A stretch of 64,000 bases of DNA from Actinomycetota bacterium (GTDB taxonomy: Bacteria > Actinomycetota > UBA4738 > HRBIN12), in assembly GCA_036374435.1 (NCBI GenBank), contig DASUTU010000030.1, forward strand, positions 15,539 through 79,538, in the 5' to 3' direction. Every line of letters starts with the position of its first letter. Within the stretch, counting starts at the first letter, position 1. Below are positions 18,449 to 55,149 of the stretch, in pieces. Below the pieces are notes generated by a model. The model worked only from the letters and a program-made list of their open reading frames with translations. It was not told the origin of the DNA and searched no databases. Made by a program: the position numbers and the translations under genes.

Positions 18449-19186
18449 TCATACGGTGGCCACGCAGAACGGCCCTGCCTGGGGGCGCTGGAGCGTGTCG
18501 GTGCCGCGCGGCGGTCCCGGGACGACCACGGAGGTGTCGACCAGCACGTCCCCGGCGTCGGTGATCTCGATCCGGAACCGGTCCAGTCCGCGAGGAGCGG
18601 GACCCAGCTTGTATTCGCCCGCGGTGTTGTACTTCGAGCCGTGACAGGGACACTCGAACCACTGCGACTGCTTGCAGAACGGGACCCGGCAGCCGAGGTG
18701 CACGCAGCGCTGGTACAGCGGCATGACCCCCTCCGCCGCCAACTGGTCGGACGCGTAGTCGATGTCGCCGGAGGGACGGCCGTCGTAGATCACGATGTAG
18801 AAGCGGCCGGTGCCCGAATACACGGGCTCCTCGGTGGAGTTGATCGCGCGGCGGATGTCGGCGAGCTTTCCGGCGTTGATCACCGAACCGAACCCGCCCC
18901 GGAGGTTCGGCCACAGGAACGCGAGGGTCGCGCCCCCGAACTGCGCCCCGAACACAAGGAGGGAAGCAACCAGCGACTTCCGGAAGAACTCGCGCCGGCT
19001 GAGGGGCTTGGGGGCCTTGGGGGCGGGCTCGCCCAGCGCCGCGGCGGTGGCGGCGGCCTCGGCGGCCCGCTGCTCGCGCCGCGCTCGGAGGAACGAGAGC
19101 CCGAAGGCGATCGCGAACAGGTCGACGATGACGATGACGACGATCGCTACCAGCGTCCCGGTCGAGATGGCCAGCACCGGCGTCAT
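18449..19186 (-). CDS. qcrA: Rieske [2Fe-2S] iron-sulfur protein of the cytochrome bc/b6c complex
   Basis: CVHLGCRVP and CPCHGSKY boxes, and the Tat-like SRREFFRKS. Start taken at MTPVLAIS (ATGA overlap with the subunit IV stop). Confidence 0.85.
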
Positions 19187-20088
19187 AACTCGAAGAACAC
19201 CCCTTGCGCCCACGGCCAGACCCAGTTGTAGCCGGTGCCGCGGAAGAAGGACCCGATGATGGTCAACGTGGCGCCGAACATCATCAGCATCGTGAACATG
19301 GTGATCGCGAGCTTGCGATCACCCGGCTTGGTGCTCGGGTTGCGGTCGACGTAGGGAACCACCGCCAGGGCGAGCAGCACCAGCGTCGGAGCGAAGAGCA
19401 CGCCGGCCACCATGGGGTGGAAGTACCGCAGCAGCTCCTGGAGGCCGAGGAAGTACCACGGGGCCTTCGACGGGTTCGGGGTCAGGTTCGGGTTGGCGAG
19501 CTCGCGCAGCGGCGCATTGACGAACGTCGAGAAGATCACCAGCCCGCCGAGCACGATCAGCATGGCCACGAACTCCTCGATCAGCAGGTGCGGCCAGACG
19601 TTGATCCGGTCCCCCTGCTCCCGCTCGACCCGCTGGATCCCCTCGGGCGGCACCAGCGCCAGCAGCCGGTGTTTCTCCTGCGCCCCCTTCTTCGGCTCCG
19701 GCACGTTCCCGGTCGGAGCCGGCGCCTGCCTGGTGGGAGCCAATGTGGTGGCACCGGCGGCGGGCGCCGAAGCGGCGGCAGCCGCCGCAGGTGCCGACGC
19801 AGCAGCAGCGGGGGCCGGAGCTGCGCTCGGAGCGGAGGTCGCCGCAGGCGCCGGCGACTCGGCCGCGCCCGAAGCCGCTCCACCATCCCCCTCCGCCGCG
19901 GCTGAGCGAGCCGGCGTGGCGGCGGCCGGAGCGGGCGCGCTGCCCTCTCCGGTCTTGGCTCTATGGGCTCGAACGGCAGCCGAGCGGGCCCGGCCTTCGG
20001 CGACCCGCCGGTCGGTGCCCTTAGCGAGCTCGTCGGCCAGGACCCGGTCGAAGGTCTCCTGGTCGAGCGGGGTGTCGTCGCGCGCCAT
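19183..20088 (-). CDS. Cytochrome b C-terminal half (b6f subunit IV-like, 3 TM) with an N-terminal extension of about 150 aa
   Basis: C-terminal [28 protein letters not shown] matches PetD/QcrB-C. The N-terminus has a conserved 28-aa motif plus an Ala/Pro-rich linker. Confidence 0.8.
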
Positions 20089-20104
20089 GTCCTTGCCTCA
20101 GCTC

Positions 20105-20875
20105 CTACAGCGGTCCCGAGATGCCACCGTCTTTGCGGATCCGCCAGAAGTGCACCGCCAGGAAGATCACCAGCACGAACGGCAGCGCGAGCACGTGCAA
20201 CACGTACCAGCGGAGCAACGTGTCCGGTCCCACCACCACGCCGCCGAGCAATAGGAAGTTCGCCTGGCTGGCGATCATGGGCGAGTACGCGGCGAGGGAC
20301 GTCCCCACCGTAACCGCCCAGATCGCGAGCTGGTCCCACGGCAGCAGGTAGCCGGTGAACGACAGCCCGAGCGTCAGGAACAGCAAGACCACGCCGACCA
20401 CCCAGTTGAACTCCCGCGGCGGCTTGTACGAGCCCGTGTAGAAGACGCGGGCCATGTGCAGCGTCACGGTGAAGACCATCAGGTGGGCGCCCCAACGGTG
20501 GATGTTGCGGACCAGGTCGCCGAAGAACACGGACGTCCGGATGTTCTGCATGTCGGTGTACGCCTGGGCCGCGCCGATCTCCGCGGCGGGCCGGTAGAAG
20601 AACATCAGGAAGATCCCGGTCACCGTGAGCAGGATGAACAGGAAGAACGAGAGGCCGCCCAGGCAGAACGTGTAGGTCAACTTCAGCCCGTGACGCTTCA
20701 TCTTGACGGGGTGGAGGTGGTACAGGACGTTGTTCATGGTCGCGAGCGCCCGGTCGCGCGACGTGTCCTTGTAGCCCTTGCGGAAGATCGATCCCGGCCG
20801 GAAGATCGACTTCCAGACCTCGGTCTCCCGAACTCGATCCAGCACCTCGCTCGGCGAGGGCGGTTTGAGCTTCAC
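20105..20875 (-). CDS. qcrB: Cytochrome b6 (N-terminal, heme-binding half of a split cytochrome b)
   Basis: GTG start ([26 protein letters not shown]) after GGAAGGAGCGGG. Heme-ligand His in RWGAHLMVF and [16 protein letters not shown]; 4 TM helices. Confidence 0.85.
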
Positions 20876-20897
20876 CCCGCTCCTTCCCCAGCTCTCG

Positions 20898-21296
20898 TTA
20901 TTCGGCCTCGGCCCGCTGTGACTCGGGCACGGCGGCCATCCGTCGCTGCCCCGAGGACGGTTCGGGCAGCCGCGCATAGTACAGCGTGTCGGTGGGGCAG
21001 CGCTCGACGCAGACCGAGCACCGAGTGCAGGCGTTGTCGTCGACCACGAAGATCGAGAAGGCCTGGCCGATCTCTGCGTCCACGGCCTCGTCGGCCGCCC
21101 CCTCCACGATGTCCGTGGACATCATGAAGATGCAGTTCCACGGGCAGACGTCCTCGCAGGCCCGGCACAAGATGCAGTTGTCCGGGTCAAGCATGAGGTG
21201 TTTGGGCGAACGAACCCCCTGGGTCAGCCACGAGGGGTCGACGCCCTCCACGACGTAGTCGGTGTGGATGTCGACTTCGGTCTTCGTGAACGGCAT
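20898..21296 (-). CDS. 2[4Fe-4S] ferredoxin
   Basis: [12 protein letters not shown] and [12 protein letters not shown]. Start at MPFTKTEV, preceded by GGAGGA. Confidence 0.8.
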
Positions 21297-21663: not shown

Positions 21664-21774
21664 ACGACCCCCACCATCACGCGAAACGTAACTCCCAACT
21701 CGATCGCGCGTCCCGAAGGCGGATTCTACACGGGCCCCTGGTGCCTCCCGGGCGCCGAGCTCCTGCGGGACGTC

Positions 21775-21792
21775 TCGTGAAAGCCTTCACAA
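21775..21792. promoter_or_regulatory. Rex operator TCGTGAAagccTTCACAA in the divergent bc-operon / ccdA intergenic region
   Basis: Matches TTGTGAA-N4-TTCACAA at 13 of 14 half-site positions. Lies 112 nt upstream of the bc-operon start and about 78 nt upstream of the ccdA start. Confidence 0.6.
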
Positions 21793-21869
21793 GCGCACGT
21801 TCCAACTATGGCAAGGAGCCTTGGCCGCCGCAACCCACTCTCCACGGAGCCCACTCCTACACTTGGGGT

Positions 21870-22607
21870 GTGCTCGTGGACTTCGTCCAGGACGGCCTCG
21901 GGTCGTGGTGGGCGCCCGGGCTGGCGTTCGCGGCCGGGGTCGTCTCGTTCGCCTCGCCGTGCGTCTTCCCGTTAGTGCCGGGGTACCTGTCGTTCGTCGC
22001 CGGGGGCGAGGCGGCGGACGAACGCCGGTCGGCCGTCCCGATCCTCCTGTTCATCGCGGGCTTCGCGGCGGTGTTCACGGCGCTGGGCGCGTTCACGGGG
22101 GCGATCAAGAGCGTGCTGGCCTCGTCGGCGGGGATCCGCGTCTCGGGCGCGATCATCGTGGCCTTCGGCGTGCTGATGCTCCTGTACGCGCTCCGCATCG
22201 GGACGCCGTCGCTGTTCGCGGAGCGCCGCCCCCTCCTCGCCGAGGTTCGCCCGGGGCCCGTGTGGGCGTTCCCGCTCGGGGTGGCGTTCGGCGCTGGCTG
22301 GACCCCGTGCATCGGGCCGGTCCTCGCCGGCGTCCTGGCCATCGCGGCAGCCCAGGGCGGCTCGTTCCGGGGGGCCGGGCTGCTGTTCGTCTACTCGATC
22401 GGGCTGGGGTTGCCGTTCTTGCTGGTCGGCCTGGGCGTGAGGCGGTTGATGGGCGCCCTCGCGTTCGTGCGGCGGAACTATCACTGGTTCGCCGGTGTCT
22501 CCGGCGTCGTGATGATCGCGATCGGAGTGTTGGTGGCGACCAACCTGTGGACGCGGCTGCTGGGTCCGGTGCTCCGGGCCATCAACAGCTTCGAGCCGCC
22601 GATCTGA
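21870..22607 (+). CDS. ccdA: Cytochrome c-type biogenesis protein CcdA (DsbD-family thiol:disulfide transporter)
   Basis: ASPCVFPLVPGYLSF and GWTPCIGPVL conserved Cys motifs; 6 TM helices. Confidence 0.8.
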   Translation: MLVDFVQDGLGSWWAPGLAFAAGVVSFASPCVFPLVPGYLSFVAGGEAADERRSAVPILLFIAGFAAVFTALGAFTGAIKSVLASSAGIRVSGAIIVAFGVLMLLYALRIGTPSLFAERRPLLAEVRPGPVWAFPLGVAFGAGWTPCIGPVLAGVLAIAAAQGGSFRGAGLLFVYSIGLGLPFLLVGLGVRRLMGALAFVRRNYHWFAGVSGVVMIAIGVLVATNLWTRLLGPVLRAINSFEPPI

Positions 22608-22701: not shown

Positions 22702-23883
22702 GTGCGCCGGCATTCGGTGACCCGGCGATGCTCGGTTCGGAGGGATCCGGCGAAGGTGCGTAGGAAGACGCTGCTGGCCGTCGGCCTGGTGGCCCTGGCC
22801 GCGGTCCTCGGCGCGTGCGCCCCGAATGCCACCCAGGACTCCCTGGAGCCGGCGGGGGAGTTCGCGCGCAAGTCCCACGATCTGTTCGTGCCGGTCTTCT
22901 GGGTGGCGACCGGCATCTTCGTCGTGGTCGAGGGCGCCCTGGTCGTCTTCGCGTTCCGGTATCGCCACCGCAAGGGCCGCGAGGGGATCCCTCCGCAGGT
23001 GCACGGGAACACCCGGCTCGAGGTGGCCTGGACGATCCTTCCGGCCGTGATCCTTGCCGGCGTGGCCGTTCCCACGGTCGCGACGATCTTCGACCTGGCG
23101 CGCCAGCCCGAAGAGGGCACCATGCGGGTGGACGTCCTCGGGCACCAGTGGTGGTGGGAGTTCAACTATCTCGAGCAGGGGTTTACCACCGCGAACGAGC
23201 TCCACATCCCCACGGGCGAGCCCGTCTACCTCCGCCTGTGCGGCGTGGGGCTGGGCGGCATCCCGGACGCCAAGACGCCGGTACCGACAGAGTGCCAGCC
23301 GGGCCCACCGGACGGCCCCGCGGCGGCGGCCGTCGGCGACGCGGTGGTCCACTCGTTCTGGGTGCCGCAGCTCGCCGGGACGATCGACGTCGTGCCGGGC
23401 CAGACCAATTTCTTGTGGATCGAGGCCGACGAGCCGGGCCGATACCCGGGGCAATGCAAGGAGTTCTGCGGGCTCTCTCACGCGTACATGAAGTTCGTCG
23501 TGGTGGCGCACGACCCGGGGGACTACCAACGGTGGGTGGAGGGGCAGCAGGCCCCGGCCGCGATGCCCGAGCCGGAGACCGCGGCCGCGTCGGGCGCGCA
23601 GACGTTCGCCGCCCAGAACCGGTGCACGCGGTGCCACACCATCGACGGGCTGGAGGACCAGGACGGCCAACCCGTCGTCGGCTCGAACGGAGCCCCCGAC
23701 CTGACGCACTTCATGAGCCGCGAGTGTTTCCGCGGGTGCACGCTGCCCGTCACCGAGGAGAACCTGCGGCGATGGCTGCAGAACCCGCAGGCCGTGGAGG
23801 CCGGGTCGTGGATGGTGGTCGACCCGCCGCTGACCGAGGGCGAGATCGACGACCTCGTCGCGTTCCTGCAGACGTTGCGATGA
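22702..23883 (+). CDS. ctaC: Cytochrome c oxidase subunit II, caa3 type with a C-terminal cytochrome c domain
   Basis: CuA site H..CKEFCGLSHAYM and C-terminal NRCTRCH (CxxCH). Lipoprotein-type signal. A GTG at 22756 is an alternative start. Confidence 0.85.
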   Translation: MRRHSVTRRCSVRRDPAKVRRKTLLAVGLVALAAVLGACAPNATQDSLEPAGEFARKSHDLFVPVFWVATGIFVVVEGALVVFAFRYRHRKGREGIPPQVHGNTRLEVAWTILPAVILAGVAVPTVATIFDLARQPEEGTMRVDVLGHQWWWEFNYLEQGFTTANELHIPTGEPVYLRLCGVGLGGIPDAKTPVPTECQPGPPDGPAAAAVGDAVVHSFWVPQLAGTIDVVPGQTNFLWIEADEPGRYPGQCKEFCGLSHAYMKFVVVAHDPGDYQRWVEGQQAPAAMPEPETAAASGAQTFAAQNRCTRCHTIDGLEDQDGQPVVGSNGAPDLTHFMSRECFRGCTLPVTEENLRRWLQNPQAVEAGSWMVVDPPLTEGEIDDLVAFLQTLR

Positions 23884-23899
23884 CGGAGGGGGTGATGCG

Positions 23900-25798
23900 G
23901 TGGCGAGCGTGAGCGTTCCGGCGCGGCGTCCAGGCCTCCTCGGCCGTCCGACGTCCACCACCGGGCTGTGGTCCTGGTTCACCACCGTGGACCACAAGAA
24001 GATCGGCATCCTCTACGGGGTCACCGCGTTCGCGTTCTTCCTCGTCGGCGGCGTCGAGGCCCTCCTGATCCGGGTACAGCTGGCCAGGCCGGACCAGAAC
24101 GTCATCTCGGAGGCGGCGTTCAACGAGCTGTTCACGATGCACGGCGTGACGATGGTGTTCCTCGTCGTCATGCCGCTCTCGGCCGCCTTCTTCAACTACT
24201 TCATCCCCCTCATGATCGGGGCCCGGGACGTGGCGTTCCCGCGGCTGAACGCCTACAGCTACTGGGCGTTCCTGTTCGCGGGCATCTTCATCTATTCGAG
24301 CTGGTTCCTGGGCGGCGCGCCGAACGGCGGCTGGTTCGGCTATCCGCCGAACTCGGTCCTCGACCCCACGCGAGGGATGACGTTCTACTCGCTCGGCCTG
24401 CTGATCGCGGGGATCGCCTCGACCGTGTCCGCGGTGAACCTGGCCGTGACGGTGATCAACATGCGGGCGCCCGGCATGACGCTGTTCCGGATGCCGGTGT
24501 TCGTGTGGATGGGGCTCGTGGTCCAGCTCCTGCTGGCCTTCTCGCTTCCGATCGTCACGATCGGGCTGGTCGAGCTGTTGTTCGACCGTCGGTTCGGGAC
24601 CCACTTCTTCGACGCCGCGGCGGGGGGGAGCCCCGTCCTGTGGCAGCACCTGTTCTGGTTGTTCGCGCACCCAGAGGTCTACATCCTGGTCCTGCCCGCC
24701 ATGGGCATCGTGTCCGAGATCCTGCCGGTGTTCTCGCGCAAACCGCTGTTCGGCTACCAGTTCGTGGTCTTCAGCGGCATCGCCATCGGCTTCATCGGGT
24801 TCGGCGTGTGGGCCCACCACATGTTCGCGGTGGGCCTGGGCCCGATCGCCAACACGGCGTTCGGCATCTCGACGATGATCATCGCCGTGCCGACCGGCGT
24901 GAAGATCTTCAACTGGCTCGGCACGATGTGGCGCGGCGACATCCGCTTCACCACGCCGATGCTGTTCGCCATCGGGTTCATCGGCATGTTCGTGATCGGT
25001 GGGCTCTCGGGCGTCTCGCACGCCGTCGTGCCCGCGGACTACCAGCAGACCGACACGTACTACATCGTGGCGCACTTCCACTACGTGCTCTTCGGCGGCG
25101 CGATCTTCGGGCTCTTCGGCGGGATCTACTACTGGTGGCCGAAGGTGTTCGGCCGGATGTTGTCCGAGCGGGCCGGCAAGTGGAACTTCTGGATCATGCT
25201 CGTCGGGTTCAACATGACGTTCGGGCCGATGCACGTGCTGGGGCTCCAGGGCATGCCGCGGCGGATCCAGAGCTACCCGGAGTCGCTCGGCCTGACGTTC
25301 TGGAACACGGTGTCGACGGTGGGCGCCTTCCTGATCGCCGTGAGCGTGCTGGTGTTCCTCGTCACCGCCGTGGCGAGCTTCCGCAGGCCCAAGGAGATGG
25401 AGGCCGATCCGTGGGACGCCAGGACGCTCGAGTGGTTCACGTCCTCGCCGCCGCCGGAGCACAACTTCGACGAGATCCCCACGGTGCATTCCCTGGATGA
25501 GCTCTGGCACCGCAAGTACGCCGAGACCCACGGCGGCAGGGTGGTCCCCGTTCCGGCCGGCGGCTCGGGCCGGCCGGCGTCGGGTCACGGCCGGAGCGAA
25601 GGGGACGGCGGGCACGGGTCGGAGCACGGCGGGCACGGGATCCACCTCCCGGGGCCGTCGTATTACCCGCTGATCGCGTCGCTCGGGCTCCCCATCGTCG
25701 GGTACGGGTTGATCTTCGGGTGGTGGATGGTCGGGGTCGGCCTGCTGGTCACGCTGGCCGGCTTCTACGGCTGGATCCTGGAGCCCTCGGCGGAGTGA
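23900..25798 (+). CDS. ctaD: Cytochrome c oxidase subunit I with a C-terminal CtaF-like 2-TM extension
   Basis: WFTTVDHKKIGILY.. is canonical COX1. There is an extra His-rich linker of about 75 aa (GHGRSEGDGGHGSEHGGHG), then LPGPSYYPLIASLGLPIVGYGLIFGWW, which resembles the C-terminal helices of actinobacterial CtaF. Confidence 0.85.
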   Translation: MASVSVPARRPGLLGRPTSTTGLWSWFTTVDHKKIGILYGVTAFAFFLVGGVEALLIRVQLARPDQNVISEAAFNELFTMHGVTMVFLVVMPLSAAFFNYFIPLMIGARDVAFPRLNAYSYWAFLFAGIFIYSSWFLGGAPNGGWFGYPPNSVLDPTRGMTFYSLGLLIAGIASTVSAVNLAVTVINMRAPGMTLFRMPVFVWMGLVVQLLLAFSLPIVTIGLVELLFDRRFGTHFFDAAAGGSPVLWQHLFWLFAHPEVYILVLPAMGIVSEILPVFSRKPLFGYQFVVFSGIAIGFIGFGVWAHHMFAVGLGPIANTAFGISTMIIAVPTGVKIFNWLGTMWRGDIRFTTPMLFAIGFIGMFVIGGLSGVSHAVVPADYQQTDTYYIVAHFHYVLFGGAIFGLFGGIYYWWPKVFGRMLSERAGKWNFWIMLVGFNMTFGPMHVLGLQGMPRRIQSYPESLGLTFWNTVSTVGAFLIAVSVLVFLVTAVASFRRPKEMEADPWDARTLEWFTSSPPPEHNFDEIPTVHSLDELWHRKYAETHGGRVVPVPAGGSGRPASGHGRSEGDGGHGSEHGGHGIHLPGPSYYPLIASLGLPIVGYGLIFGWWMVGVGLLVTLAGFYGWILEPSAE

Positions 25799-25805
25799 GG
25801 ACCTG

Positions 25806-26435
25806 ATGGCCACTGTCGAACACGCGGACGAACGCCCACTCGTCGTCGAGGAGCACGCCACCAGCACGGGGTTGCCGAACACGAAGCTCGCGATGTGGCT
25901 GTTCCTGGCTTCGGACTGCCTGTTGTTCGGCGCCCTGATCTCGACGTACGTGCTCTATCGGGGCGCCAGCACCACCGGGCCGTTCCCGAACGACGTCTTC
26001 GACATCCCCTACACGTCCGTGTCGTCATTCGTGCTGCTGGCCAGCTCGCTCACGATGGTGCTCGCCCTGGCGGCGATCCAGCGCGGTGACGTGGCCCGCT
26101 CGCGCGTGTGGCTGCTGGCGACCGCGCTGCTCGGGTCGACCTTCGTCGGGGGGCAGGTCTACGAGTTCACCGCGTTCCACGACGAGGGCCTCACGCTGAG
26201 CGCCAACGTGTTCGGGTCGTCGTTCTACGTCCTGACCGGCTTCCACGGGACGCACGTCACGGTCGGCGTCCTGATGTTGCTGACGTTGGTGTTCCTCTCT
26301 CTGGCCGGGCGCCTCGGCCCCGAACGCGCGGAGACGGTCGAGATGGTCGGCCTGTATTGGCACTTCGTCGACATCGTTTGGATCGTCATCTTCACGGTCG
26401 TCTACCTGATCCCGACCGGGAACGGGAGTCCCTGA
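25806..26435 (+). CDS. ctaE: Cytochrome c oxidase subunit III
   Basis: Typical COX3 helices (WLFLASDCLLFGALI, FYVLTGFHGTHV). Confidence 0.9.
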   Translation: MATVEHADERPLVVEEHATSTGLPNTKLAMWLFLASDCLLFGALISTYVLYRGASTTGPFPNDVFDIPYTSVSSFVLLASSLTMVLALAAIQRGDVARSRVWLLATALLGSTFVGGQVYEFTAFHDEGLTLSANVFGSSFYVLTGFHGTHVTVGVLMLLTLVFLSLAGRLGPERAETVEMVGLYWHFVDIVWIVIFTVVYLIPTGNGSP

Positions 26436-26776
26436 TGGCCACCGAGCCCGTCGAACGCTCCGAGCGGATCGCGGCCAGACAACGCACTCACGCGCGCCAC
26501 CCGAGCACGAGGGAATACGTGCGGATCGCGATCGTCCTGGCCGTGGTCACGGCGGCCGAGGTGGCCATCTACTACATCGACTGGATCCACGAGAACGGAC
26601 TCCTGATCCCCCTGCTGTTCCTGTTCTCGTTGATCAAGTTCTCGCTCGTCGTGATGTGGTTCATGCACCTGAAGTTCGACAGCCGGACGTACTCGCGCTT
26701 CTTCCTCATGGGCCTGGCGGGCGCGATCACCCTGTACCTCATCGTGTTGTTGCTGTTTCGGACGTTTGCGAACTGA
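26435..26776 (+). CDS. ctaF: Cytochrome c oxidase subunit IV (prokaryotic COX4 / Bacillus CtaF type)
   Basis: 113 aa, 3 TM. TGATG overlap with ctaE. Confidence 0.7.
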   Translation: MATEPVERSERIAARQRTHARHPSTREYVRIAIVLAVVTAAEVAIYYIDWIHENGLLIPLLFLFSLIKFSLVVMWFMHLKFDSRTYSRFFLMGLAGAITLYLIVLLLFRTFAN

Positions 26777-26778
26777 CC

Positions 26779-27606
26779 ATGCCCGGCTGGCATCCCCACG
26801 CCGACGTCTGGCTCCTCCTCGGAGGCCTCTGGGTGGGGTATCTGGTCGCCTGGCGGCGACGCGCGGCCGACGTCCCTCCCGCCCGAGAGCAACGGCGCCG
26901 CCGCACCGCGCTGTTCACCGTCGGGATGGCGCTCCTGCTGTTGGCGTCCGACTGGCCGGTGCACGACCTGGCCGAGGAGCGCCTGTATTCGGCGCACATG
27001 GTTCAGCACCTCGTCTACACGCTCGTGGCGGCGCCGTTGCTTCTCGCGGGGGTGCCCGCGTGGATGTGGCGAGCGCTGCTGCGCCCGTCGCCCGTGTGGG
27101 CGGTGTTCGGGTTCCTGACGCGCCCGATCGTCGCGCTCGCCGTGTTCAACGGGCTGCTCCTGCTCACGCACTGGCCGGAGGTCGTGAACGCCTCCGTGAG
27201 GTCGGAGTGGACCCACTTCGGCCTGCACGTCCTGATCGTCGGATCGGCCGTGGTGATGTGGTGGCCCGTGCTCTCCCCGCTGCCCGAACGCCCGCCATTG
27301 TCCCCCCCGCTCCAGATGGTCTACCTGTTCCTGCAGTCGCTGGCGCCGACCATCCCCGCGTCGTTCCTCACCTTCGGGACCTCGCCGCTCTACGCGGCCT
27401 ACGAGTCCTTCCCCAGGACGTGGGGGCTCAGCGCGCTGGACGACCAGCTCATCGCCGGCCTGGTGATGAAGATCGCCGGCGGGCTGATCCTGTGGGCGTT
27501 CATCGCGGTGATCTTCTTCAACTGGCACGCCCGGGAGCGAACGGGGTGGGACGCCCTGGGTCTGCGGCAGGTGGAGCGCGACGTCCGGGCGAGGATGGCC
27601 CGGTGA
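26779..27606 (+). CDS. ctaG: Cytochrome c oxidase assembly factor CtaG (caa3 type)
   Basis: SAHMVQHLVYTLVAAPLLLAGVP motif; multi-TM. Confidence 0.7.
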   Translation: MPGWHPHADVWLLLGGLWVGYLVAWRRRAADVPPAREQRRRRTALFTVGMALLLLASDWPVHDLAEERLYSAHMVQHLVYTLVAAPLLLAGVPAWMWRALLRPSPVWAVFGFLTRPIVALAVFNGLLLLTHWPEVVNASVRSEWTHFGLHVLIVGSAVVMWWPVLSPLPERPPLSPPLQMVYLFLQSLAPTIPASFLTFGTSPLYAAYESFPRTWGLSALDDQLIAGLVMKIAGGLILWAFIAVIFFNWHARERTGWDALGLRQVERDVRARMAR

Positions 27607-28547
27607 AACCGACGACCCGGGACCGGCTCGTGCTCCCGATCCTGCTGCCGGTCGGGATCCTCGTGGCCCTGGCGGCGGCGTTGTGGGGGTTCTCGCGCAT
27701 CCTCCTCGGCATCCACGGGTCGCCGGCCACCGCCGTGGCGCTCGTCGTGGCCGCGGCGATCCTCGTGGTCTCGGCTCTTGCCGCCTCACGGCCCCAGGTG
27801 CGGGGGTCGACGATCGGCGCGGTGATCGGGGGGACCGCGGGGATCGCCATGCTTGCCGGCGGTATCGCGCTCGCGGTCGTGGCTGCCGACGAAGGCGAGC
27901 ACCCGCCCGGACCGCAGGAGCCGGGGGGAGCGGTGCCGCTCGTAGCTCAGGACATCGCGTTCGACCCCACGATGCTGACGGTCCCCGCGGGGCAGCCGTT
28001 CACCATCGCCTTCGACAACCGGGACGCCGGCATCCAGCACAACATGGTGATCTTCGACAACCCGGACTTCTCGGGCCCGCCGCTGTTCGACGGGGAGATC
28101 GTGACCGGGCCGATCCAGGTCGACTACGACGTCGACCCGCTCGAAGCGGGCACCTACTACTTCTACTGCGTGGTGCACCCGAACATGACCGGCCAGATCG
28201 AGGCGGTCGAGGAGCCGGGCGGCGGCGAGGGCCCCGAACCCGGAGGGCCTGGAGCGGGCGAAGGGCCGGTCGTGGCCGCCATGAACCTGGCGTTCGACAC
28301 CGACACGATCGAGCTTCCCGCGGACGCCCCGACCATGATCACGTTCGACAACCAGGAGGCGGTCCCGCACAACATCGCGATCTATTCCGACGACAGCCTC
28401 CGGGAGCTGCTGTTCCAGGGCGACATCGTCACCGGCCCCACGACGATCGAATACGAGATCCCGCCGCTGCCGGCCGGCGAGTACTACTTTCAATGCGACG
28501 TGCACCCGAACATGAACGGCCGGGTGGTCGTCGGGGGTGGTGGCTGA
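27603..28547 (+). CDS. Membrane-anchored tandem (two-domain) cupredoxin / blue copper protein
   Basis: N-terminal TM helix, then two plastocyanin-like ligand sets: H..YYFYCVVHPNM and H..YYFQCDVHPNM. GTGA-coupled to ctaG. Confidence 0.75.
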   Translation: MKPTTRDRLVLPILLPVGILVALAAALWGFSRILLGIHGSPATAVALVVAAAILVVSALAASRPQVRGSTIGAVIGGTAGIAMLAGGIALAVVAADEGEHPPGPQEPGGAVPLVAQDIAFDPTMLTVPAGQPFTIAFDNRDAGIQHNMVIFDNPDFSGPPLFDGEIVTGPIQVDYDVDPLEAGTYYFYCVVHPNMTGQIEAVEEPGGGEGPEPGGPGAGEGPVVAAMNLAFDTDTIELPADAPTMITFDNQEAVPHNIAIYSDDSLRELLFQGDIVTGPTTIEYEIPPLPAGEYYFQCDVHPNMNGRVVVGGGG

Positions 28548-28558
28548 CGGCTCGGTCG

Positions 28559-30388
28559 CTAGGCGAGCCCGCCCGTCGGCACGATCGCGTCGACGGCCAC
28601 CGAGGCGAACAGCAGCCCGAGATAGGCGATCGAGAACCGGAACAGGTGGACCGGCTCGGCCGGGGACGCCTCGCGCCACAGCCGGAGGGCGCGCCACACG
28701 AACCAGCCCCCCAGGACGAGCGCCGTGGCCGCGTAGACCGGGCCCATGTGCCCGACCGGGATCAAGACCAGCGAGGCCGCGAACAGGACCAGCGAGTAGA
28801 GCAGGATTTGGCGGCGGGTCTCCTCGGGGCCGCGGACCACCGGGAGCATCGGGACCCCCGCGGCCGCGTAGTCGCCCTGGTAGCGCATGGCCAGCGCCCA
28901 GAAATGCGGCGGGGTCCACACGAACACGATCGCGAACAGCACCCAAGCCGGCGGCCCCACGGTGCCGGTGACGGCGGCCCACCCGACCAGTGCGGGGACC
29001 GCCCCAGCCGCGCCGCCGATGACGATGTTCTGCACGCTGGTTCGCTTCAGCCACAAGGTGTACACGAAGACGTAGAAGGCGATCGCGGACAGCGCCAGCG
29101 AGGCCGCCAGCATGTTCACGGCGATCGCGAGGAAGAAGAACGAGACCGCGCCGAGCATGTACCCGAAGGCGAGAGCGCGTTCGGGCGCGATGCGGTGCGC
29201 CGGCAGGGGGCGCCGCCTCGTCCGGCGCATCACCTCGTCGATGTCCCGGTCGAGGTAGCAGTTGATGGCGTTCGCGGAGCCGGCAGCCATGGCCCCGCCG
29301 AGCAGCGTCGCGCCCACCAGCCACAGGGAGGGCATCCGACGCTCGGCCAGGACCATCGCCGGGACCGTCGTGATCAGCAGCAGCTCGATGATGCGCGGCT
29401 TGGTGAGCTGGACGTAGGCGGCGGTGGTCTCGCGGAGCGATCCGCGTCTGCCGTTCCCGCCGACGCCGGCGCGATCCGCCCGCATTCGGCCTCGGGCGAG
29501 GGCCCGGCCGAGCGTGGCCACCACCATCAGGACCGCCCAGATCGCGCCGGAGAACGCCACGTGCGCCGTGACGGCGGCCGCGCTCAGCTCGGACCAGACG
29601 TTGGCCGCCCCGACGAGGATCTGCCCCGCGAACAGGACGAGCGCAATCGTCGTCAGGACCACCAGAGCGGGCGAGCGCACCGGAGACGTGCGTGCCCGGA
29701 TCGCGAGCCAGAGCACCAGCACGAGCGCGAGCGCCGCCAACACCCGGTGGACGAACATCAGCGTTGCCGCGCCTCCGAGGGTGGGCACCAGCCGACCGTC
29801 CATCAGCGGCCAGTCCCGAAACGCCAGTCCCGCCCCCTCGGCCCGGACGTACGCCCCCACCACGAGGAGCGCCCCCACCGCGGCGGCGGTCCCCAGGGCG
29901 AGGCGAGCGAGGGCCGGATCCGCTCCTGCCGGCGGCTCGTCGCCACCTCGGTGCGGCTCGAACCGGAAGGTGTTCGCGGCGACCACGGTCACCACGGCGA
30001 CCAGGGCCATGGCGGTCGCGAAGTGCAGCGCCACCACGGTGGCCTCCAGGCCGCCCTCGACGACCACGCCGCCCAGCCCGGCCTGGACGAGGACGACGCC
30101 CACGGCGGCGACGGCCGGGCCGACGATTGCGGGCTGGTGTCGCAGCCGGCGCCAGGCCATCACGGCCTGCAACGCCACGAGCACCACCACGATGCTGGCG
30201 AGCAGGCGGTGCGCGTATTCGATGACCGCGTGGTACTCGAGCGGCGGGATCCATCGCCCGTAGCAGGTGGGCCAGCCCGGGCACCCCAGCCCCGACGCGG
30301 TCGCCCGGACGAGGCCCCCTACCGCCACCAGCAGCAACGTCGAAGCCGTCGTGGTGATCGCGAGCTTCTGGAAGCGGGTCATCGGCAT
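28559..30388 (-). CDS. ctaA-ctaB: Fused heme A synthase (CtaA, N-terminal) and heme O synthase / protoheme IX farnesyltransferase (CtaB, C-terminal)
   Basis: A single uninterrupted ORF. The N-terminal half has GCPGWPTCYG and His pairs (CtaA). The C-terminal half has YVQLTKPRIIELLLITT..DRDIDEVMRRTRRRPLP (UbiA-type CtaB). Start taken at MPMTRFQKL; the listed M is 19 codons upstream. Confidence 0.8.
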   Translation of the reverse strand: MPMTRFQKLAITTTASTLLLVAVGGLVRATASGLGCPGWPTCYGRWIPPLEYHAVIEYAHRLLASIVVVLVALQAVMAWRRLRHQPAIVGPAVAAVGVVLVQAGLGGVVVEGGLEATVVALHFATAMALVAVVTVVAANTFRFEPHRGGDEPPAGADPALARLALGTAAAVGALLVVGAYVRAEGAGLAFRDWPLMDGRLVPTLGGAATLMFVHRVLAALALVLVLWLAIRARTSPVRSPALVVLTTIALVLFAGQILVGAANVWSELSAAAVTAHVAFSGAIWAVLMVVATLGRALARGRMRADRAGVGGNGRRGSLRETTAAYVQLTKPRIIELLLITTVPAMVLAERRMPSLWLVGATLLGGAMAAGSANAINCYLDRDIDEVMRRTRRRPLPAHRIAPERALAFGYMLGAVSFFFLAIAVNMLAASLALSAIAFYVFVYTLWLKRTSVQNIVIGGAAGAVPALVGWAAVTGTVGPPAWVLFAIVFVWTPPHFWALAMRYQGDYAAAGVPMLPVVRGPEETRRQILLYSLVLFAASLVLIPVGHMGPVYAATALVLGGWFVWRALRLWREASPAEPVHLFRFSIAYLGLLFASVAVDAIVPTGGLA

Positions 30389-30405
30389 CGGAGGTCGGCG
30401 CCCGT

Positions 30406-30423
30406 GAACGATAGCAGTCGTTC
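30406..30423. promoter_or_regulatory. Perfect palindrome GAACGA-tagcag-TCGTTC in the ctaAB / polyprenyl-synthase divergent region
   Basis: 18-bp inverted repeat 18 nt upstream of the proposed ctaA-ctaB start and 55 nt upstream of the divergent gene. Confidence 0.35.
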
Positions 30424-30477
30424 CCCCGCGGGCCGATCCCCACACCGGCCGGCGACCCGTCTTGCGATACTCCTCCG

Positions 30478-31371
30478 GTGAGCCGCGACGCGACGCCGAA
30501 CGCCGCCCGACCGCCGGCGGACGCCCGTGACCGACTGGACGCCGAGCTGGAGCGTTTCCTGGGCGAGCGCCGGGCGGAGCTCGCGGCGCTCGATCCCGCG
30601 GCGGTCGCCCTCGTCGACGAGCTTCTGCGGCTGCTGGCGGCGGGCGGCAAACGGCTTCGACCGGCGTTGTGCCTGTGGGCCCATCGTGCGGCCGGTGGGG
30701 CGGAGGGCGGCGGTGCGGTTCGGGCGGCGGCGGCCCTCGAGCTCCTTCACACGTTCGCGCTGATCCACGACGACGTCATGGATGCGTCGAGGACACGCCG
30801 CGGTGTGGCCTCCTCGTGGGCGTGGTTCGCGCAGTCCGCGCCTCCCGGGACGGATGCCGACACCTACGGGAGGTCGGTGGCGATCTTGGTGGGCGACCTC
30901 GCCGCGGTGCTCGCCGAGCAGATGCTCCGCACGTGCGGGGCGTCCCCGGTGGCGCTCGGGCTCGCCATGGACCGGTTCGACCGGATGCGGACGGAGATGG
31001 CGGCGGGCCAGCTCCTCGACGTCCGCGGCGCCGGCGCGGATCGCGTACGCGTGGCGGCCCTGAAGACGAGCTCCTACACGGCAGAAGGCCCGGTGTTGAT
31101 CGCCACGGCCTTGGCCGGGGCCGGCCCGGCGGTGGAGGGTCCGCTCCGCGTCTACGCCGGGCTGGTGGGAGAGGCCTTTCAGCTCCGGGACGACGTCCTG
31201 GACGGCGACGCGGAGCCGGGCGCCGCCGGCCGGGTGAACGAGCTCGTCGATCGCGCCGTGGGCACGTTGTCGGGCGCGCCGCTGGATCCGCATGGGGTCG
31301 CCGGGCTGACCGGGCTCGCCATGTTGCTGCGCCTCGAGCCGCCGGTCGTGCCCGCGGCGGCGGAGGCCTGA
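30478..31371 (+). CDS. Polyprenyl (farnesyl/geranylgeranyl) diphosphate synthase
   Basis: LIHDDVMD (first DDxxD) and QLRDDVLD (second Asp-rich motif). Confidence 0.75.
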   Translation: MSRDATPNAARPPADARDRLDAELERFLGERRAELAALDPAAVALVDELLRLLAAGGKRLRPALCLWAHRAAGGAEGGGAVRAAAALELLHTFALIHDDVMDASRTRRGVASSWAWFAQSAPPGTDADTYGRSVAILVGDLAAVLAEQMLRTCGASPVALGLAMDRFDRMRTEMAAGQLLDVRGAGADRVRVAALKTSSYTAEGPVLIATALAGAGPAVEGPLRVYAGLVGEAFQLRDDVLDGDAEPGAAGRVNELVDRAVGTLSGAPLDPHGVAGLTGLAMLLRLEPPVVPAAAEA

Positions 31372-31915: not shown

Positions 31916-31933
31916 TTGTGAGGAACTTCACAA
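31916..31933. promoter_or_regulatory. Rex operator 1 upstream of ggr-nuoA-N: TTGTGAGgaacTTCACAA
   Basis: 13 of 14 half-site positions match TTGTGAA-N4-TTCACAA. Confidence 0.65.
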
Positions 31934-31948
31934 GTCGTTTAGCATTGC

Positions 31949-31966
31949 TTGTGAAGGAATTCACAA
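31949..31966. promoter_or_regulatory. Rex operator 2 upstream of ggr-nuoA-N: TTGTGAAggaaTTCACAA (perfect consensus)
   Basis: All 14 half-site positions match. Centre-to-centre spacing to operator 1 is 33 bp. Confidence 0.7.
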
Positions 31967-31968
31967 GC

Positions 31969-33237
31969 GTGGGGGACAAGCCGTTGCCAGGTGGTTCGAA
32001 CACGCACGTCGAAACCGACGTCTTGATCGTCGGGGCGGGGCCCGGCGGCTCGACGGCCGCGTACCACCTGGCGCGCCACGGCGTGGACGTCACCGTCGTC
32101 GAGAAGTCCAGCTTCCCCCGCGAGAAGGTCTGCGGAGACGGGCTCACGCCGCGGGCGATCGTCCAGCTCCGCAAGATGGGGATCGATACCGACGATCCCC
32201 GGTTCGAGCGTCACGAGGGCCTTCGCATCTACTCGCGCAGGACCAGGCTCGAGTTGCCGTGGCCCGCGCTCGAGTCGTTCCCGGGGTTCGGCCTGACCAT
32301 GACCCGGTCGAGCTTCGACGAGCTCCTGGCGCGGAGGGCCGAAAAGGCCGGGGCCGCGCTGCGCGAGCGCGTGGAGGCCCTGGCGCCGATCCGCGACGAC
32401 GGCTGGGTCACGGGGGCGCGGGTCCGGGACCTCGAGCGGGACGTGGAGCTCGACGTTCGAGCGCGATTCGTCATCGCCGCCGACGGGGCGGCCTCGCGGT
32501 TCGCCGGTGCCGTCGGCGTCCGCCGTGATCCGTCCAAGCCGCTCGGCATCGCCGCGCGCCGGTACTACCGGATCGATCGCCATCCCGGTCCGTGGCTCGA
32601 GGTGTGGATGGACCTGTGGGACGGCGAATCGCTCATGCCGGGCTACGGGTGGTTCTTCGCGTTGTCCGACGGCTCCGTCAACCTCGGCGCGGGGCTGCTG
32701 AACACCTTCCGCAACTTCCGCGACGTGTCGGCGCAACAAGTGTTCGATGCGTTCGCCCGGATGCTCCCGCCGGGGTGGGGGGTGGACGAATCGACCGCCG
32801 AGGGTCGGACGCTCTCGGGTCCGCTGCCGATGGGGATGAACCGAGATCGTGTGACCGTGCCGGGGATGTTGCTCGTCGGCGACGCCGCGGGGATGGTCAA
32901 CCCGTTCAACGGTGAGGGCATCGCGTACGCCATGGAGTCCGGCGAGCTCGCCGCCGAGCTGGTCCACGACGCGCTCGTGCTCGACCGTCCGGGGCTCGCC
33001 CACGTGTATCCGACCATCCTGCGCGAGCGGTATGGGCGGTACTTCCGGATCGGGACGAACTTCGTCCGCGCGATCGGCAACCCGACTGTGATGCGGACCC
33101 TCACCGATTACGGCCTGCCACGCGCGTGGCTGATGCGGTTCGCCCTTCGGGTGATGGGCAACCTCACGGACGGATCGGAAGGGGACCTGCAGGACAAGAT
33201 GATGTACGGGCTCGAGCGCCTGGCCCGAGCGCCGTAG
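31969..33237 (+). CDS. FAD-dependent geranylgeranyl reductase family protein (MenJ-like menaquinone/prenyl reductase)
   Basis: DVLIVGAGPGGSTAAYHLA (FAD dinucleotide-binding), CGDGLTPR and GDAAGMVNPFNGEGI. Start placed at the GTG just after the Rex operators. Confidence 0.8.
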   Translation: MGDKPLPGGSNTHVETDVLIVGAGPGGSTAAYHLARHGVDVTVVEKSSFPREKVCGDGLTPRAIVQLRKMGIDTDDPRFERHEGLRIYSRRTRLELPWPALESFPGFGLTMTRSSFDELLARRAEKAGAALRERVEALAPIRDDGWVTGARVRDLERDVELDVRARFVIAADGAASRFAGAVGVRRDPSKPLGIAARRYYRIDRHPGPWLEVWMDLWDGESLMPGYGWFFALSDGSVNLGAGLLNTFRNFRDVSAQQVFDAFARMLPPGWGVDESTAEGRTLSGPLPMGMNRDRVTVPGMLLVGDAAGMVNPFNGEGIAYAMESGELAAELVHDALVLDRPGLAHVYPTILRERYGRYFRIGTNFVRAIGNPTVMRTLTDYGLPRAWLMRFALRVMGNLTDGSEGDLQDKMMYGLERLARAP

Positions 33238-42644: not shown

Positions 42645-42946
42645 GGACGCCCATCTCCTACTTCCTGATCGTGTCCGGGATGCTCTTCGCCATCGGCACC
42701 GTGGGCGTGTTGGTTCGCAAGAACGCGCTCGTGATCTTCATGGCGGTCGAGCTCCAGCTGAACGCGGTGAACCTGTCGCTGGTCGCGTTCAGCCGTATGC
42801 ACAACAACCTGAACGGGCAGGTCATGGCGTTCTTCTCCATGGTCGTGGCCGCCGCCGAGGTCGTGGTCGGCCTGGCGATCATCGTGACCATCTACCGCCG
42901 TCGCCAGAGCGCCAGCGTGGACGACGCGAACGTGTTGCGAGGGTGA
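42641..42946 (+). CDS. nuoK: NADH-quinone oxidoreductase subunit K
   Basis: 101 aa; [17 protein letters not shown]. Confidence 0.85.
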
Positions 42947-42950
42947 GCGG

Positions 42951-46456: not shown

Positions 46457-47901
46457 TCGGCACCCCCGCCATCGACCTGGGACCCGTCGTCCCCGAGCTC
46501 ATTCTGGTGGGGACGGCCATCCTGGTCTTGCTGGGCGCCGCGCTGGCGCGGCGGGTCGAGCCGCTCGGCTGGTTGTTCGTCTCGCTGGCCGGGGTGGGCG
46601 GCGCCGCGGCGGCCGCGGTGGCGCTCTGGGACCGCGAGGGGGACCTGACGGTCCTGGGCGGAACGGTCGCCGCCGACCGGTTCGGGGTTGCGGTTCGATT
46701 GATCCTGCTGGCCATCGCGGCGATCGGCCTCGTCCTCGGCCACCACTACTTCGAACGTTCGGGCGAGGGCCGGCCGGAGTTCTACCCGCTCGTGCTGTTC
46801 GCGACCTCTGGCATGACGCTCATCGCCGTCGCCACCGACCTGATCCTGGTGTTCCTGGCGCTCGAGGTACTGTCGCTGTCGCTGTACGTGTTGACCGGCC
46901 TCGGATCGCGGCTGGGCTCGATCGAGGGCGCGATGAAGTACTTCTTGCTCGGCGCGTTCTCCTCGGCCTTCTTCCTGTTCGGCGTCGCGATGGCCTACGG
47001 CGCGACGGGATCCACGGGCTTCGCCGACGTGGCGTCCTCGCTGGCGGGCCGGACCGACGGGCTGGCGCTGGCCCTGACCGGGCTGGGGCTGCTCGCCGTG
47101 GGGTTCGCCTTCAAGGTCTCCGCCGTCCCCTTCCACATGTGGACGCCGGACGTGTACCAGGGGGCCCCCACGGCGGTGACGGCGTTCATGTCGGCCGCCA
47201 CGAAGGTGGCCGGGTTCGCGGCGTTGATGCGTCTGTTCAACATCGCGCTCCAGCCACTCGCCTGGGACTGGCGGCCGATCGTGTGGGCCCTGGCGGCCGT
47301 TTCGGTCGTGGCGGGCAGCGTGTTGGCCATTGCCCAGCGCGACGTCAAGCGCCTGCTCGCGTATTCGAGCATCGCCCACGCCGGGTTCGTGCTCACGGGC
47401 TTGACCGCGGCCGGCGAACCCGGCATCAGCGCGGGCCTGTATTACCTGCTCGCGTACTCGCTGACCATTCTCGGGGCGTTCGGCGTGGTCATGCTGGTGT
47501 CCTCGCGGGGCGACCGGCGCACCGAGCTGGAGGCCTACCGAGGCCTGGGCATGCACAGCCCGGTGCTGGCCGGCCTCCTGGCCGTCTTCCTCCTGTCGCT
47601 CACGGGGATCCCGCCGACGGCCGGGTTCGTGGCGAAGGTCGCGGTGTTCAGCGCCGCGATGGAGGCCGGAGGGTGGCCGCTCGTGTTGATCGGCGTCGTC
47701 GCGAGCGTGGTCGCCGCCTATTTCTACCTGCGGGTCATCGTGTTGATGTTCATGCACGAGCCGGAGGGCGAACCCGAGACCGACCGAGGCTGGGTGCCGA
47801 GGTTCGTCGTGGGGCTGCCGGCGGCCCTCGTGCTGATCCTGGGCGTGTTCCCGGGGCTCGTGGTCGGCTTCCTGGAGACCGCGGCGGTGTTGCGCTGGTG
47901 A
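46453..47901 (+). CDS. nuoN: NADH-quinone oxidoreductase subunit N
   Basis: 482 aa; MWTPDVYQGAPTAVTAFM. Confidence 0.9.
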   Translation: MIGTPAIDLGPVVPELILVGTAILVLLGAALARRVEPLGWLFVSLAGVGGAAAAAVALWDREGDLTVLGGTVAADRFGVAVRLILLAIAAIGLVLGHHYFERSGEGRPEFYPLVLFATSGMTLIAVATDLILVFLALEVLSLSLYVLTGLGSRLGSIEGAMKYFLLGAFSSAFFLFGVAMAYGATGSTGFADVASSLAGRTDGLALALTGLGLLAVGFAFKVSAVPFHMWTPDVYQGAPTAVTAFMSAATKVAGFAALMRLFNIALQPLAWDWRPIVWALAAVSVVAGSVLAIAQRDVKRLLAYSSIAHAGFVLTGLTAAGEPGISAGLYYLLAYSLTILGAFGVVMLVSSRGDRRTELEAYRGLGMHSPVLAGLLAVFLLSLTGIPPTAGFVAKVAVFSAAMEAGGWPLVLIGVVASVVAAYFYLRVIVLMFMHEPEGEPETDRGWVPRFVVGLPAALVLILGVFPGLVVGFLETAAVLRW

Positions 47902-47935
47902 CGCCGACGCGCGTCCTCAGGGTAGGGTCGGGGTC

Positions 47936-52300: not shown

Positions 52301-52797
52301 CGGGTCAGGAGTACGCGTTCCTCGTGTTGTCCGTCGTTGGCGTCGGCGCGGCCATTCGCGTCGTGACGGCGCGAAACGTCGTGCACGCCGCGCTGTACCT
52401 GGTCGTCACGCTCTCGATGGTGGCGGGCGCGTACCTGATCCTCTCGGCCGAGTTCGTGGCGTGGGTGCAGGTCCTCATCTACGTCGGGGCCGTGGTGATC
52501 CTGTTCCTGTTCGGCCTCATGTTGACGAAGGCGCCGATCGGGCGCGAGGCCCTCGACAACCAGCGGCGGGGTGTGGCCTTCCTCGTTGGGCTGGCCATCC
52601 TGGCCGGGCTGGTCTTCCTGATCCAGGACGCGTTCGGGTGGGACGAGTCGCGGATCGACCCCTCCGGAGGAGGCGCCGCCGAGGTCGGGTCGGCGATCTT
52701 CTCTCGGTTCGTCCTTCCGTTCGAGGTCGTGTCCTTCCTGCTGCTGGCGGCGCTGATCGGGGCCATCGTGCTCTCCCGGAGGGACGACTCGACGTGA
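52297..52797 (+). CDS. nuoJ: NADH-quinone oxidoreductase subunit J, second copy
   Basis: 166 aa, 5 TM. ATGA overlap with the upstream gene. Confidence 0.8.
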
Positions 52798-53096: not shown

Positions 53097-53101
53097 CCGC
53101 C

Positions 53102-55075
<1,974 letters not shown>

Positions 55076-55149
55076 GAGGGGGTGCGGGGACTGACGGAGC
55101 GAGCCCGTGAGCGAGCGGTCGTCCCCCACGCGGAAGGGTGGGAGAGCAG

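Follow-up and report, generated by a model that had tools for sequence, protein, structure and literature searches.

The window analysed here is a stretch of 64 kb with 70% GC from an Actinomycetota bacterium (assembly GCA_036374435.1, contig DASUTU010000030.1, positions 15,539 to 79,538). Its minus strand carries a single open reading frame (ORF) of 628 codons, 28559..30445, with no internal stop in the ORF listing, in which a heme A synthase domain (CtaA) is followed by a heme O synthase domain (CtaB). The sequences confirm that the fusion is real, that is, that one gene carries both predicted enzyme domains. All residue numbers below count from the GTG start of the 628-codon ORF, and the features of the gene, all on the minus strand, are the following.

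28559..30382, minus strand: coding sequence of the fused heme A synthase / heme O synthase (CtaA-CtaB), delimited by the ORF, the invariant Met22 and the start of database protein P0001; stop codon at 28559-28561
30383..30445, minus strand: in-frame upstream extension of 21 codons with a GTG start; alignment column identity 0.00 for amino acids (aa) 1-20, and predicted local distance difference test (pLDDT) below 50 for aa 1-17
29507..30382, minus strand (aa 22-313): CtaA / COX15 heme A synthase domain, class C / type 1C, with eight predicted transmembrane helices (Pfam, phmmer, Foldseek)
30257..30286, minus strand (aa 54-63): GCPGWPTCYG, Cys pair C55/C61 (C-x5-C) of the first extracytoplasmic loop (6A2J alignment)
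30206..30220, minus strand: EYAHR, containing Glu76 and the substrate-side heme ligand His79, aligned to Bacillus subtilis E57/H60; both invariant
29795..29827, minus strand: LAFRDWPLMDG, third extracytoplasmic loop, with Phe209/Met215 at the positions of B. subtilis C191/C197
29435..29506, minus strand (aa 314-337): inter-domain linker, RALARGRMRADRAGVGGNGRRGSL, about 24 residues including 8 Arg (alignment columns, pLDDT, third-position GC)
29483..29485, minus strand: internal ATG, Met321 in 'GRMRADRAG'; Met in the window sequence and P0001 only
28562..29434, minus strand (aa 338-628): CtaB / heme O synthase (protoheme IX farnesyltransferase) domain, with nine predicted transmembrane helices (NCBIfam, Pfam, Foldseek)
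29237..29272, minus strand (aa 392-403): NAINCYLDRDID, first Asn/Asp-rich UbiA-type prenyltransferase motif; N392, N395, D399, D401 and D403 invariant
28838..28891, minus strand: AMRYQGDYAAAGVPMLPV, second conserved CtaB motif; Y522, D525, Y526, G530, P532 and P535 invariant

A single gene with two enzyme domains

A preliminary description, made from the letters of the window and its ORFs, had given the gene as 28559-30445; these are indeed the limits of the ORF, but the coding start lies further in. In the family alignment, which joins the ORF to 56 homologues at 64-100% identity (57 sequences), Met22 at window position 30382 is invariant and the first 21 residues have no counterpart in the homologues. 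Database protein P0001 (607 aa, 'MAG TPA: heme o synthase [Actinomycetota bacterium]'), a 100% identical match, also starts at Met22, which by this evidence is almost certainly the true start; the product would therefore have 607 aa, encoded by 28559-30382, with a computed mass of 64.0 kDa in place of the roughly 66 kDa first proposed. The 63 nucleotides (nt) of the upstream extension are probably untranslated and would belong to the divergent promoter region; a start at Met22 opens an intergenic region of 95 nt up to a polyprenyl diphosphate synthase gene at 30478. A start at the GTG at 30445 was considered and rejected, as the first 21 codons are unconserved and it would leave just 32 nt to the divergent gene. 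Scans of 28300-30700 for a consensus sigma-70 promoter and an intrinsic terminator gave no match, a kind of scan that is uninformative in actinobacterial DNA of 70% GC, and no RNA gene came up when the whole window was scanned with Rfam and for tRNAs.

Long spurious ORFs are frequent in DNA of this composition (a 932-codon antisense ORF overlaps the fusion gene), and the length of the ORF is therefore no evidence on its own; the weight is carried by the profile scores, which lie far beyond chance. The claim of one ORF without a stop between the domains held up in its codon usage as well: third-position GC stays at 0.88-1.00 in one frame from end to end and at 0.88 across the linker, and this unbroken codon bias argues that there is no hidden frame switch.

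The N-terminal half is matched by Pfam PF02628 (COX15-CtaA) at aa 28-306 over nearly the full length of the profile (positions 3-321 of 322; E 6e-38; 131 bits against a cutoff of 29.9), by phmmer to B. subtilis CtaA (6A2J, E 3e-21), and by Foldseek to the same structure with a target-normalised TM-score of 0.78; the trimeric Aquifex enzyme was also matched. The modelled helices (aa 24-48, 71-100, 105-130, 135-159, 177-202, 229-253, 259-284, and 289-326) and the fold match to 6A2J together give the eight helices in two four-helix bundles that define a heme A synthase. On the 6A2J alignment, in which the chain index equals native B. subtilis numbering plus 6, C55 and C61 correspond to C35 and C42, E76 to E57, and the His ligands H79, H141, H233, and H295 to H60, H123, H216, and H278. 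All seven of these residues are invariant in the 57 sequences, as are W58 and P59 between the two Cys, and the C-x5-C spacing is kept in 57 of 57 family members. The N-terminal CtaA/COX15 domain with its GCPGWPTCYG motif, as first described, is thus confirmed and the motif placed at aa 54-63. A second Cys pair was looked for in the CtaA halves of the family, in the alignment and by a Cys check, and was not found; in the third loop F209 is invariant and M215 is conserved in at least 90% of the sequences. Because the first Cys pair is present and the loop-3 pair is absent, the CtaA half falls in class C / type 1C as that class has been defined (PMC8239418; PMC12808453).

The C-terminal half is matched by Pfam UbiA (PF01040) at aa 356-603 (E 4e-71; profile positions 1-245 of 250) and exceeds the cutoffs of two heme o synthase equivalog models, NCBIfam NF003349 (422 bits against 246, aa 333-622) and TIGR01473 (340 bits against 210). 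The other UbiA-family equivalogs in NCBIfam, including UbiA, MqnP, and ChlG, each score far under their own cutoffs. Foldseek aligns this half with the UbiA-family intramembrane prenyltransferases 7BPU and 6M31 at a TM-score of 0.82. The YVQLTKPRIIELL motif is present from aa 344, and the RYQGDYAAAGVPMLP motif, with Y522, D525, and Y526 among its residues, is invariant in the family alignment; the NAINCYLDRDID motif would, as in the UbiA family generally, be catalytic. The N-x3-D-x-D-x-D and Y-x-x-D-Y regions and the nine-helix fold that mark heme O synthases are all found, so that the UbiA-type CtaB domain with D-rich motifs proposed from the letters alone could be located and scored.

An AlphaFold model built on the 57-sequence alignment (mean pLDDT 79, predicted template modelling score, pTM, 0.71) has eight helices in aa 24-326, a short helix at 337-347, and nine helices in aa 350-621, for a prediction of 17 transmembrane helices. 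A simple hydropathy scan fused or split helices and missed the first ones of CtaB, and the helices of the model were used instead. The linker is the least conserved region of the protein, and its length shifts by just a few residues across the family alignment; R314 and R338 are conserved in at least 90% of the sequences, N331, G332, and R334 occur in most of them, and a flexible stretch at aa 326-334 has pLDDT below 50. Both termini of CtaA are cytoplasmic, and UbiA-family enzymes have a cytoplasmic N-terminus with Asp-rich motifs that face the cytoplasm. The linker would likewise be cytoplasmic, and its eight Arg are consistent with the positive-inside rule. Joining eight helices to nine would then be topologically neutral because the ends of CtaA and the N-terminus of CtaB are taken to lie on the same, cytoplasmic side.

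Fusion among relatives and the alternatives to it

The two-domain architecture is the rule among the closest relatives. Both PF02628 and PF01040 are found in 120 of the 120 best homologues from a collection of 5.8 billion proteins (NCBI, JGI, ENA, and Logan assemblies), nearly all of which are about 600 aa long, with a few shortened to 491-579 aa; the N-terminal CtaA and C-terminal CtaB of the preliminary description are thus supported by domain searches, by similarity to solved structures in both sequence and fold, and by the same order of domains throughout this set. Further out, 80 species-representative genomic loci divide into 24 with the two domains fused in one uninterrupted ORF (including the three closest, L001-L003), 27 with separate ctaA and ctaB (13 on the same strand, the rest called on opposite strands, several of these through short partial matches), and 29 with ctaB only within the locus. 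Fused forms occur in Actinomycetota metagenome-assembled genomes (MAGs), Gemmatimonadales, Armatimonadetes, and many Chloroflexota (Chloroflexia, Ktedonobacteraceae, Dehalococcoidia, Thermomicrobiales, and Anaerolineaceae). The CtaA domain alone was also searched against 1.84 billion cluster representatives at 50% identity: of the 150 nearest, about 19 were 598-827 aa long with CtaA at the N-terminus, and thus fused, and most of the others were stand-alone proteins 300-360 aa in length. Fusions include CtaA domains of class B as well as of class C. By the conservation of these sequences, fusion is the conserved and selected state in the family.

Some relatives carry adjacent but unfused ctaA-ctaB pairs (L023, L015, L047, L014, and L079), and in four of them the junction reads as follows.

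L023, 6895-7002: stop of ctaA and start of ctaB share the 4 nt ATGA
L047 (Gemmatimonadales), 1399-1506: TAG followed directly by ATG, in the same frame
L014, 1180-1287: TAG ACG ATG, in the same frame
L079 (Paraburkholderia nemoris), 6982-7089: TGA CCC CAC ATG, in the same frame

Because such junctions consist of a stop codon or an ATGA overlap, one substitution or a 1-nt insertion or deletion would interconvert the fused and split states, which suggests that fusion and fission are easy and recurrent. Neighbour-joining distance trees for each domain are in keeping with this: the clade of the window groups with class C fused proteins of Chloroflexota, with the split L015/L023 pair nearby, and fused and split Gemmatimonadales are sister groups, a pattern that suggests repeated fusion or fission. 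These trees are rough (unbootstrapped, from segments delimited by BLAST), are suggestive only, and are given no weight here on which way fusion or fission ran or on lateral transfer. At two further loci, L028:5890-7892 (labelled Mycobacteriales) and L060:5952-7969 (Acidimicrobiaceae), the CtaA and CtaB matches lie in different overlapping frames with no clean stop/start junction; these genes may be fused ones in which the assembly has introduced a frameshift.

From these sequences we consider it very likely that the product is a true bifunctional enzyme, integral to the membrane, that carries out the final two steps in the synthesis of heme A; its enzymatic activities, membrane orientation, channelling, and expression as a single uncleaved polypeptide we infer. 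Several points weigh against so full a reading. The pTM of the model, 0.71, is only moderate. The predicted orientation of the termini rests on the B. subtilis CtaA structure, on the UbiA family, and on the positive-inside rule. The search for further copies spans the window, and additional stand-alone ctaA or ctaB genes elsewhere in the genome are possible. Finally, the sequence is compatible with post-translational proteolytic separation or with extra internal initiation, either of which may occur.

This last point leads to the alternative that keeps the most ground, namely that the ORF is continuous but that a separate CtaB is also, or mainly, made, by initiation at Met321 or by cleavage in the linker. 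The in-frame linker ATG stands 12 codons before the heme o synthase profile match with a weak GAGG 4 nt upstream, and the model is flexible just beyond it, at aa 326-334. However, Met321 is unique among the aligned sequences to the window and its identical copy P0001, the other 55 of the 57 carrying R, G, T, or a gap in that column, which argues that an internal start is not kept by selection; GAGG-like strings are expected by chance at 70% GC, and the spacing here is short. The near-constant length of the linker and its conserved flanking basic residues further suggest a tether that is maintained, and not a site of cleavage or restart. We therefore regard a separate CtaB as an improbable account of the gene, and its initiation at the internal ATG, raised in the preliminary description, finds little to recommend it; a minor separate product may be made in the source organism.

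Still less probable is that one half is a catalytically dead scaffold (CtaA, for example, serving as a heme binder or chaperone) and that the true enzyme is encoded elsewhere. The second Cys pair of the B. subtilis type is missing, and the genome is known here from the 64-kb window alone, both of which would leave room for such an arrangement. Yet none of the four His, the Glu, or the first Cys pair varies in the family alignment, class C, without the second pair, is accepted as a class of heme A synthases (PMC8239418 Table), the score of the CtaB half is well over its equivalog cutoff, and no other ctaA or ctaB accompanies the gene in this respiratory cluster. An assembly or sequencing artefact, in which a missed stop or a 1-nt insertion or deletion at the junction joined separate ctaA and ctaB genes, is the least credible of the three and can be set aside: although the sequence matches a metagenome-assembled genome (P0001 is named 'MAG TPA') and a single base would be decisive where relatives' genes are separated by just a stop codon or a 4-nt overlap, all 120 best homologues come from independent assemblies and are two-domain proteins of about 600 aa, the linker is near constant in length over 57 aligned sequences, third-position GC is at least 0.88 in one frame through the junction, and L001-L003 are single ORFs as well. 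The concern about a sequencing error or frameshift is in this way answered by the independent homologues and the continuous codon bias.

The respiratory neighbourhood

The fused gene lies in an island of respiratory genes, of which the following bear on it most directly.

22702..28547, plus strand: convergent caa3-type cytochrome c oxidase operon (Pfam), with CtaC (carrying a cytochrome c domain), CtaD, CtaE, CtaF, Caa3_CtaG, and a tandem-cupredoxin protein
30478..31371, plus strand: polyprenyl diphosphate synthase, divergent (head-to-head) from the fusion gene (Pfam PF00348, E 2e-33)
31918..33237, plus strand: MenJ-like geranylgeranyl reductase-family protein, downstream of the polyprenyl synthase
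19183..20977, minus strand: cytochrome b split in the manner of b6/subunit IV (Cytochrome_B gene 20105-20977, Cytochrom_B_C gene 19183-20088)
21741..22607: CcdA, in the respiratory gene island
47837..48958, plus strand: another polyprenyl synthase, with a better score than the first (PF00348, E 1e-61), inside or after the nuo cluster

The plus-strand cta operon ends at 28547, 11 nt from the stop codon of the fusion gene, so that the two run tail-to-tail and are convergent, as had been noted. This convergent arrangement is common to L001, L002, L003, and L021, all related Actinomycetota MAGs: L001-L003 keep the order from the reductase gene to CtaC, and L021 shows the part from CtaB to CtaC. 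L015 and L023, with their separate ctaA and ctaB genes, have the same flanking synteny, and the polyprenyl synthase stands beside ctaA-ctaB in L001-L003, L015, and L023. Beyond the reductase gene the island continues into a nuo operon. No second ctaA or ctaB was found within the 64-kb window.

The window holds two prenyl diphosphate synthases, at 30478-31371 and 47837-48958. All NCBIfam matches of the first fall under their cutoffs; the best is an encapsulin-cargo polyprenyl transferase, and the mycobacterial farnesyl/geranyl diphosphate synthase is among the strongest of the sub-cutoff matches. The same protein has a Phe five residues ahead of its DDVMD motif. It is a possible source of farnesyl diphosphate for the CtaB domain, a role suggested by its position, and the pair of synthase and reductase may serve either to provide farnesyl diphosphate for heme O or to make menaquinone.

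Several details of the oxidase operon and of the nuo region deserve a record of their own. CtaD (23900-25798, plus strand, 632 aa) matches NCBIfam TIGR02891 at 722 bits; its COX1 domain reaches to about aa 478-540, and the protein continues into a C-terminal extension, of which aa 577-628 have a weak match to the actinobacterial Pfam family Cyt_c_ox_IV (PF12270, E 8e-7). CtaD may thus be a fusion of subunit I with a subunit IV-like part; a separate COX4_pro gene (26432-26776, plus strand) is also present. The Caa3_CtaG ORF (26656-27606, plus strand) overlaps the CtaF ORF (26432-26776, plus strand) by 121 nt and is matched by Pfam only from aa 61 onward; the real start of CtaG is therefore probably further downstream. 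The last gene of the operon (27603-28547, plus strand) encodes a membrane-anchored protein with two amicyanin/plastocyanin-like cupredoxin domains and HPNM motifs; its position is conserved in L001-L003 and L021, and the protein could either donate electrons to the oxidase or take part in copper handling. In the nuo region, antiporter-like subunits of the NuoL/M/N type lie at 42888-44825, 52757-55075, and 55111-56685 (plus strand). Two of them are NuoL-like with Proton_antipo_N, and the one at 52757-55075 (772 aa) has a long N-terminal extension; the extra NuoL-like genes may belong to a second complex I-like or Mrp-like module.

Proposed function and known systems

In the mechanism that we propose, the CtaB domain would transfer the farnesyl group of farnesyl diphosphate to heme B to give heme O, which would then move sideways into the CtaA domain, whose N-terminal four-helix bundle holds the substrate site. 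At this site the C8 methyl group of heme O would be oxidised in an O2-dependent reaction to the formyl group of heme A. By analogy with the B. subtilis structure, the substrate site would comprise Glu76, His79, and His141, the Cys55/Cys61 pair in the first outer loop would be essential, and a heme b cofactor held in the C-terminal bundle by His233 and His295 would mediate the oxidation. The heme A formed could then be supplied to CtaD, subunit I of the convergent caa3-type oxidase. Fusion would fix the stoichiometry of the two activities at 1:1 and keep their active sites close in the membrane, and this proximity presumably favours the hand-over of heme O, which is hydrophobic and potentially toxic. 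The fused gene probably arose when neighbouring ctaA and ctaB genes, coupled in translation, lost the stop codon or the frame offset that had kept them apart. Substrate channelling in the fusion, suggested at the outset, is plausible by analogy and agrees with the membrane complex formed by separate CtaA and CtaB proteins (PMC9145763).

A broader reading that joins three parts is offered tentatively, and as a whole we think it rather doubtful. First, the clade comprising the window, L001-L003, and L021, which is uncultured, would not have inherited the usual actinobacterial arrangement (a divergent ctaA with a His-to-Asn change and a separate ctaB) and would instead have a Chloroflexota-like class C fusion, either acquired laterally or retained from a deep ancestor. 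Second, the fusion would share a conserved module with a dedicated short-chain polyprenyl synthase, so that the supply of farnesyl diphosphate and the making of heme O and of heme A would be co-regulated as one unit beside the oxidase. Third, a natural stoichiometric fusion would be a convenient target for cryo-electron microscopy of heme O hand-over. Sequence and Foldseek searches of solved structures turned up no heme O synthase, no complex of heme O and heme A synthases, and no fused protein, and natural fusions could be a practical route to the structure of the hand-over complex because no heme O synthase was found among those structures.

The public record of the identical protein names 'heme o synthase' alone. 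The CtaA half is hidden by that name, and a metabolic reconstruction could therefore wrongly infer that ctaA is absent despite a caa3 oxidase that depends on heme A. Beyond annotation the instance has little import, adding a host lineage and a correction of the record and no new kind of system. The fused, overlapping, and stop-separated junctions of its relatives nonetheless illustrate cleanly how easily translationally coupled genes fuse and split when their products act in successive membrane-bound steps.

Fusions of this kind are already known and are common in public sequence data, and the present one is ordinary among them; the statement in the preliminary description that similar proteins were believed to have been reported in a few bacteria was correct. 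Separate CtaA and CtaB form a membrane complex that is thought to tunnel heme O, and the two are fused in some bacteria (PMC9145763). CtaA-CtaB fusions have been listed for Deinococcus-Thermus, Chloroflexi, Armatimonadetes, Acetothermia, Ktedonobacter, Bdellovibrio, and others (Degli Esposti et al., 2021; PMC8239418 Table), and 154 of 273 archaeal type 1A heme A synthase sequences, mostly from Halobacteria, occur as fusions with heme O synthase (PMC12808453). Actinomycetota are named in none of these lists. The protein of the window resembles the fused class C (type 1.0) proteins of the bacterial list in its CtaA-CtaB order, in having the first Cys pair only, and in keeping all of the heme-ligand His (PMC8239418 Table). 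The nearest loci outside the Actinomycetota, L004-L010, are class C fusions of Chloroflexota with the same C-x5-C spacing. Two differences separate it from the listed fusions: its host belongs to an uncultured Actinomycetota lineage, absent from the fused taxa of the table, and the fused row for Chloroflexi and Acetothermia has a 6-residue Cys spacing, whereas the family of the window has 5 residues throughout (PMC8239418 Table).

Compared with B. subtilis CtaA (6A2J) and CtaB, the predicted reactions are the same two, and the CtaA fold and ligand residues match. B. subtilis CtaA, however, is a class B enzyme with two Cys pairs (C-x6-C) and a separate polypeptide, whereas the association in the window is covalent; B. 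subtilis ctaA is also transcribed divergently from ctaB. The typical stand-alone CtaA of Actinobacteria (type 1.3) comes from the same phylum and is likewise class C with the first Cys pair only, but it carries E..N in place of the Glu and His, with His60 replaced by Asn (PMC8239418 Table; PMC12808453), whereas the protein of the window keeps His79 and is fused. The CtaA proteins of L035 (Curtobacterium) and L036 (Acidimicrobiales) have this His-to-Asn change at the first ligand and are called on the strand opposite ctaB. The archaeal type 1A fusion combines the same two activities in one polypeptide, but its CtaA part is a compact four-helix unit that must dimerise, in contrast to the full eight-helix CtaA part here (PMC12808453). 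In the unfused pairs of the relatives the gene order is the same and, in L015 and L023, so are the flanks, with the polyprenyl synthase and reductase on one side and the cta operon on the other; the difference lies in the stop codon or 4-nt ATGA overlap between the two genes.

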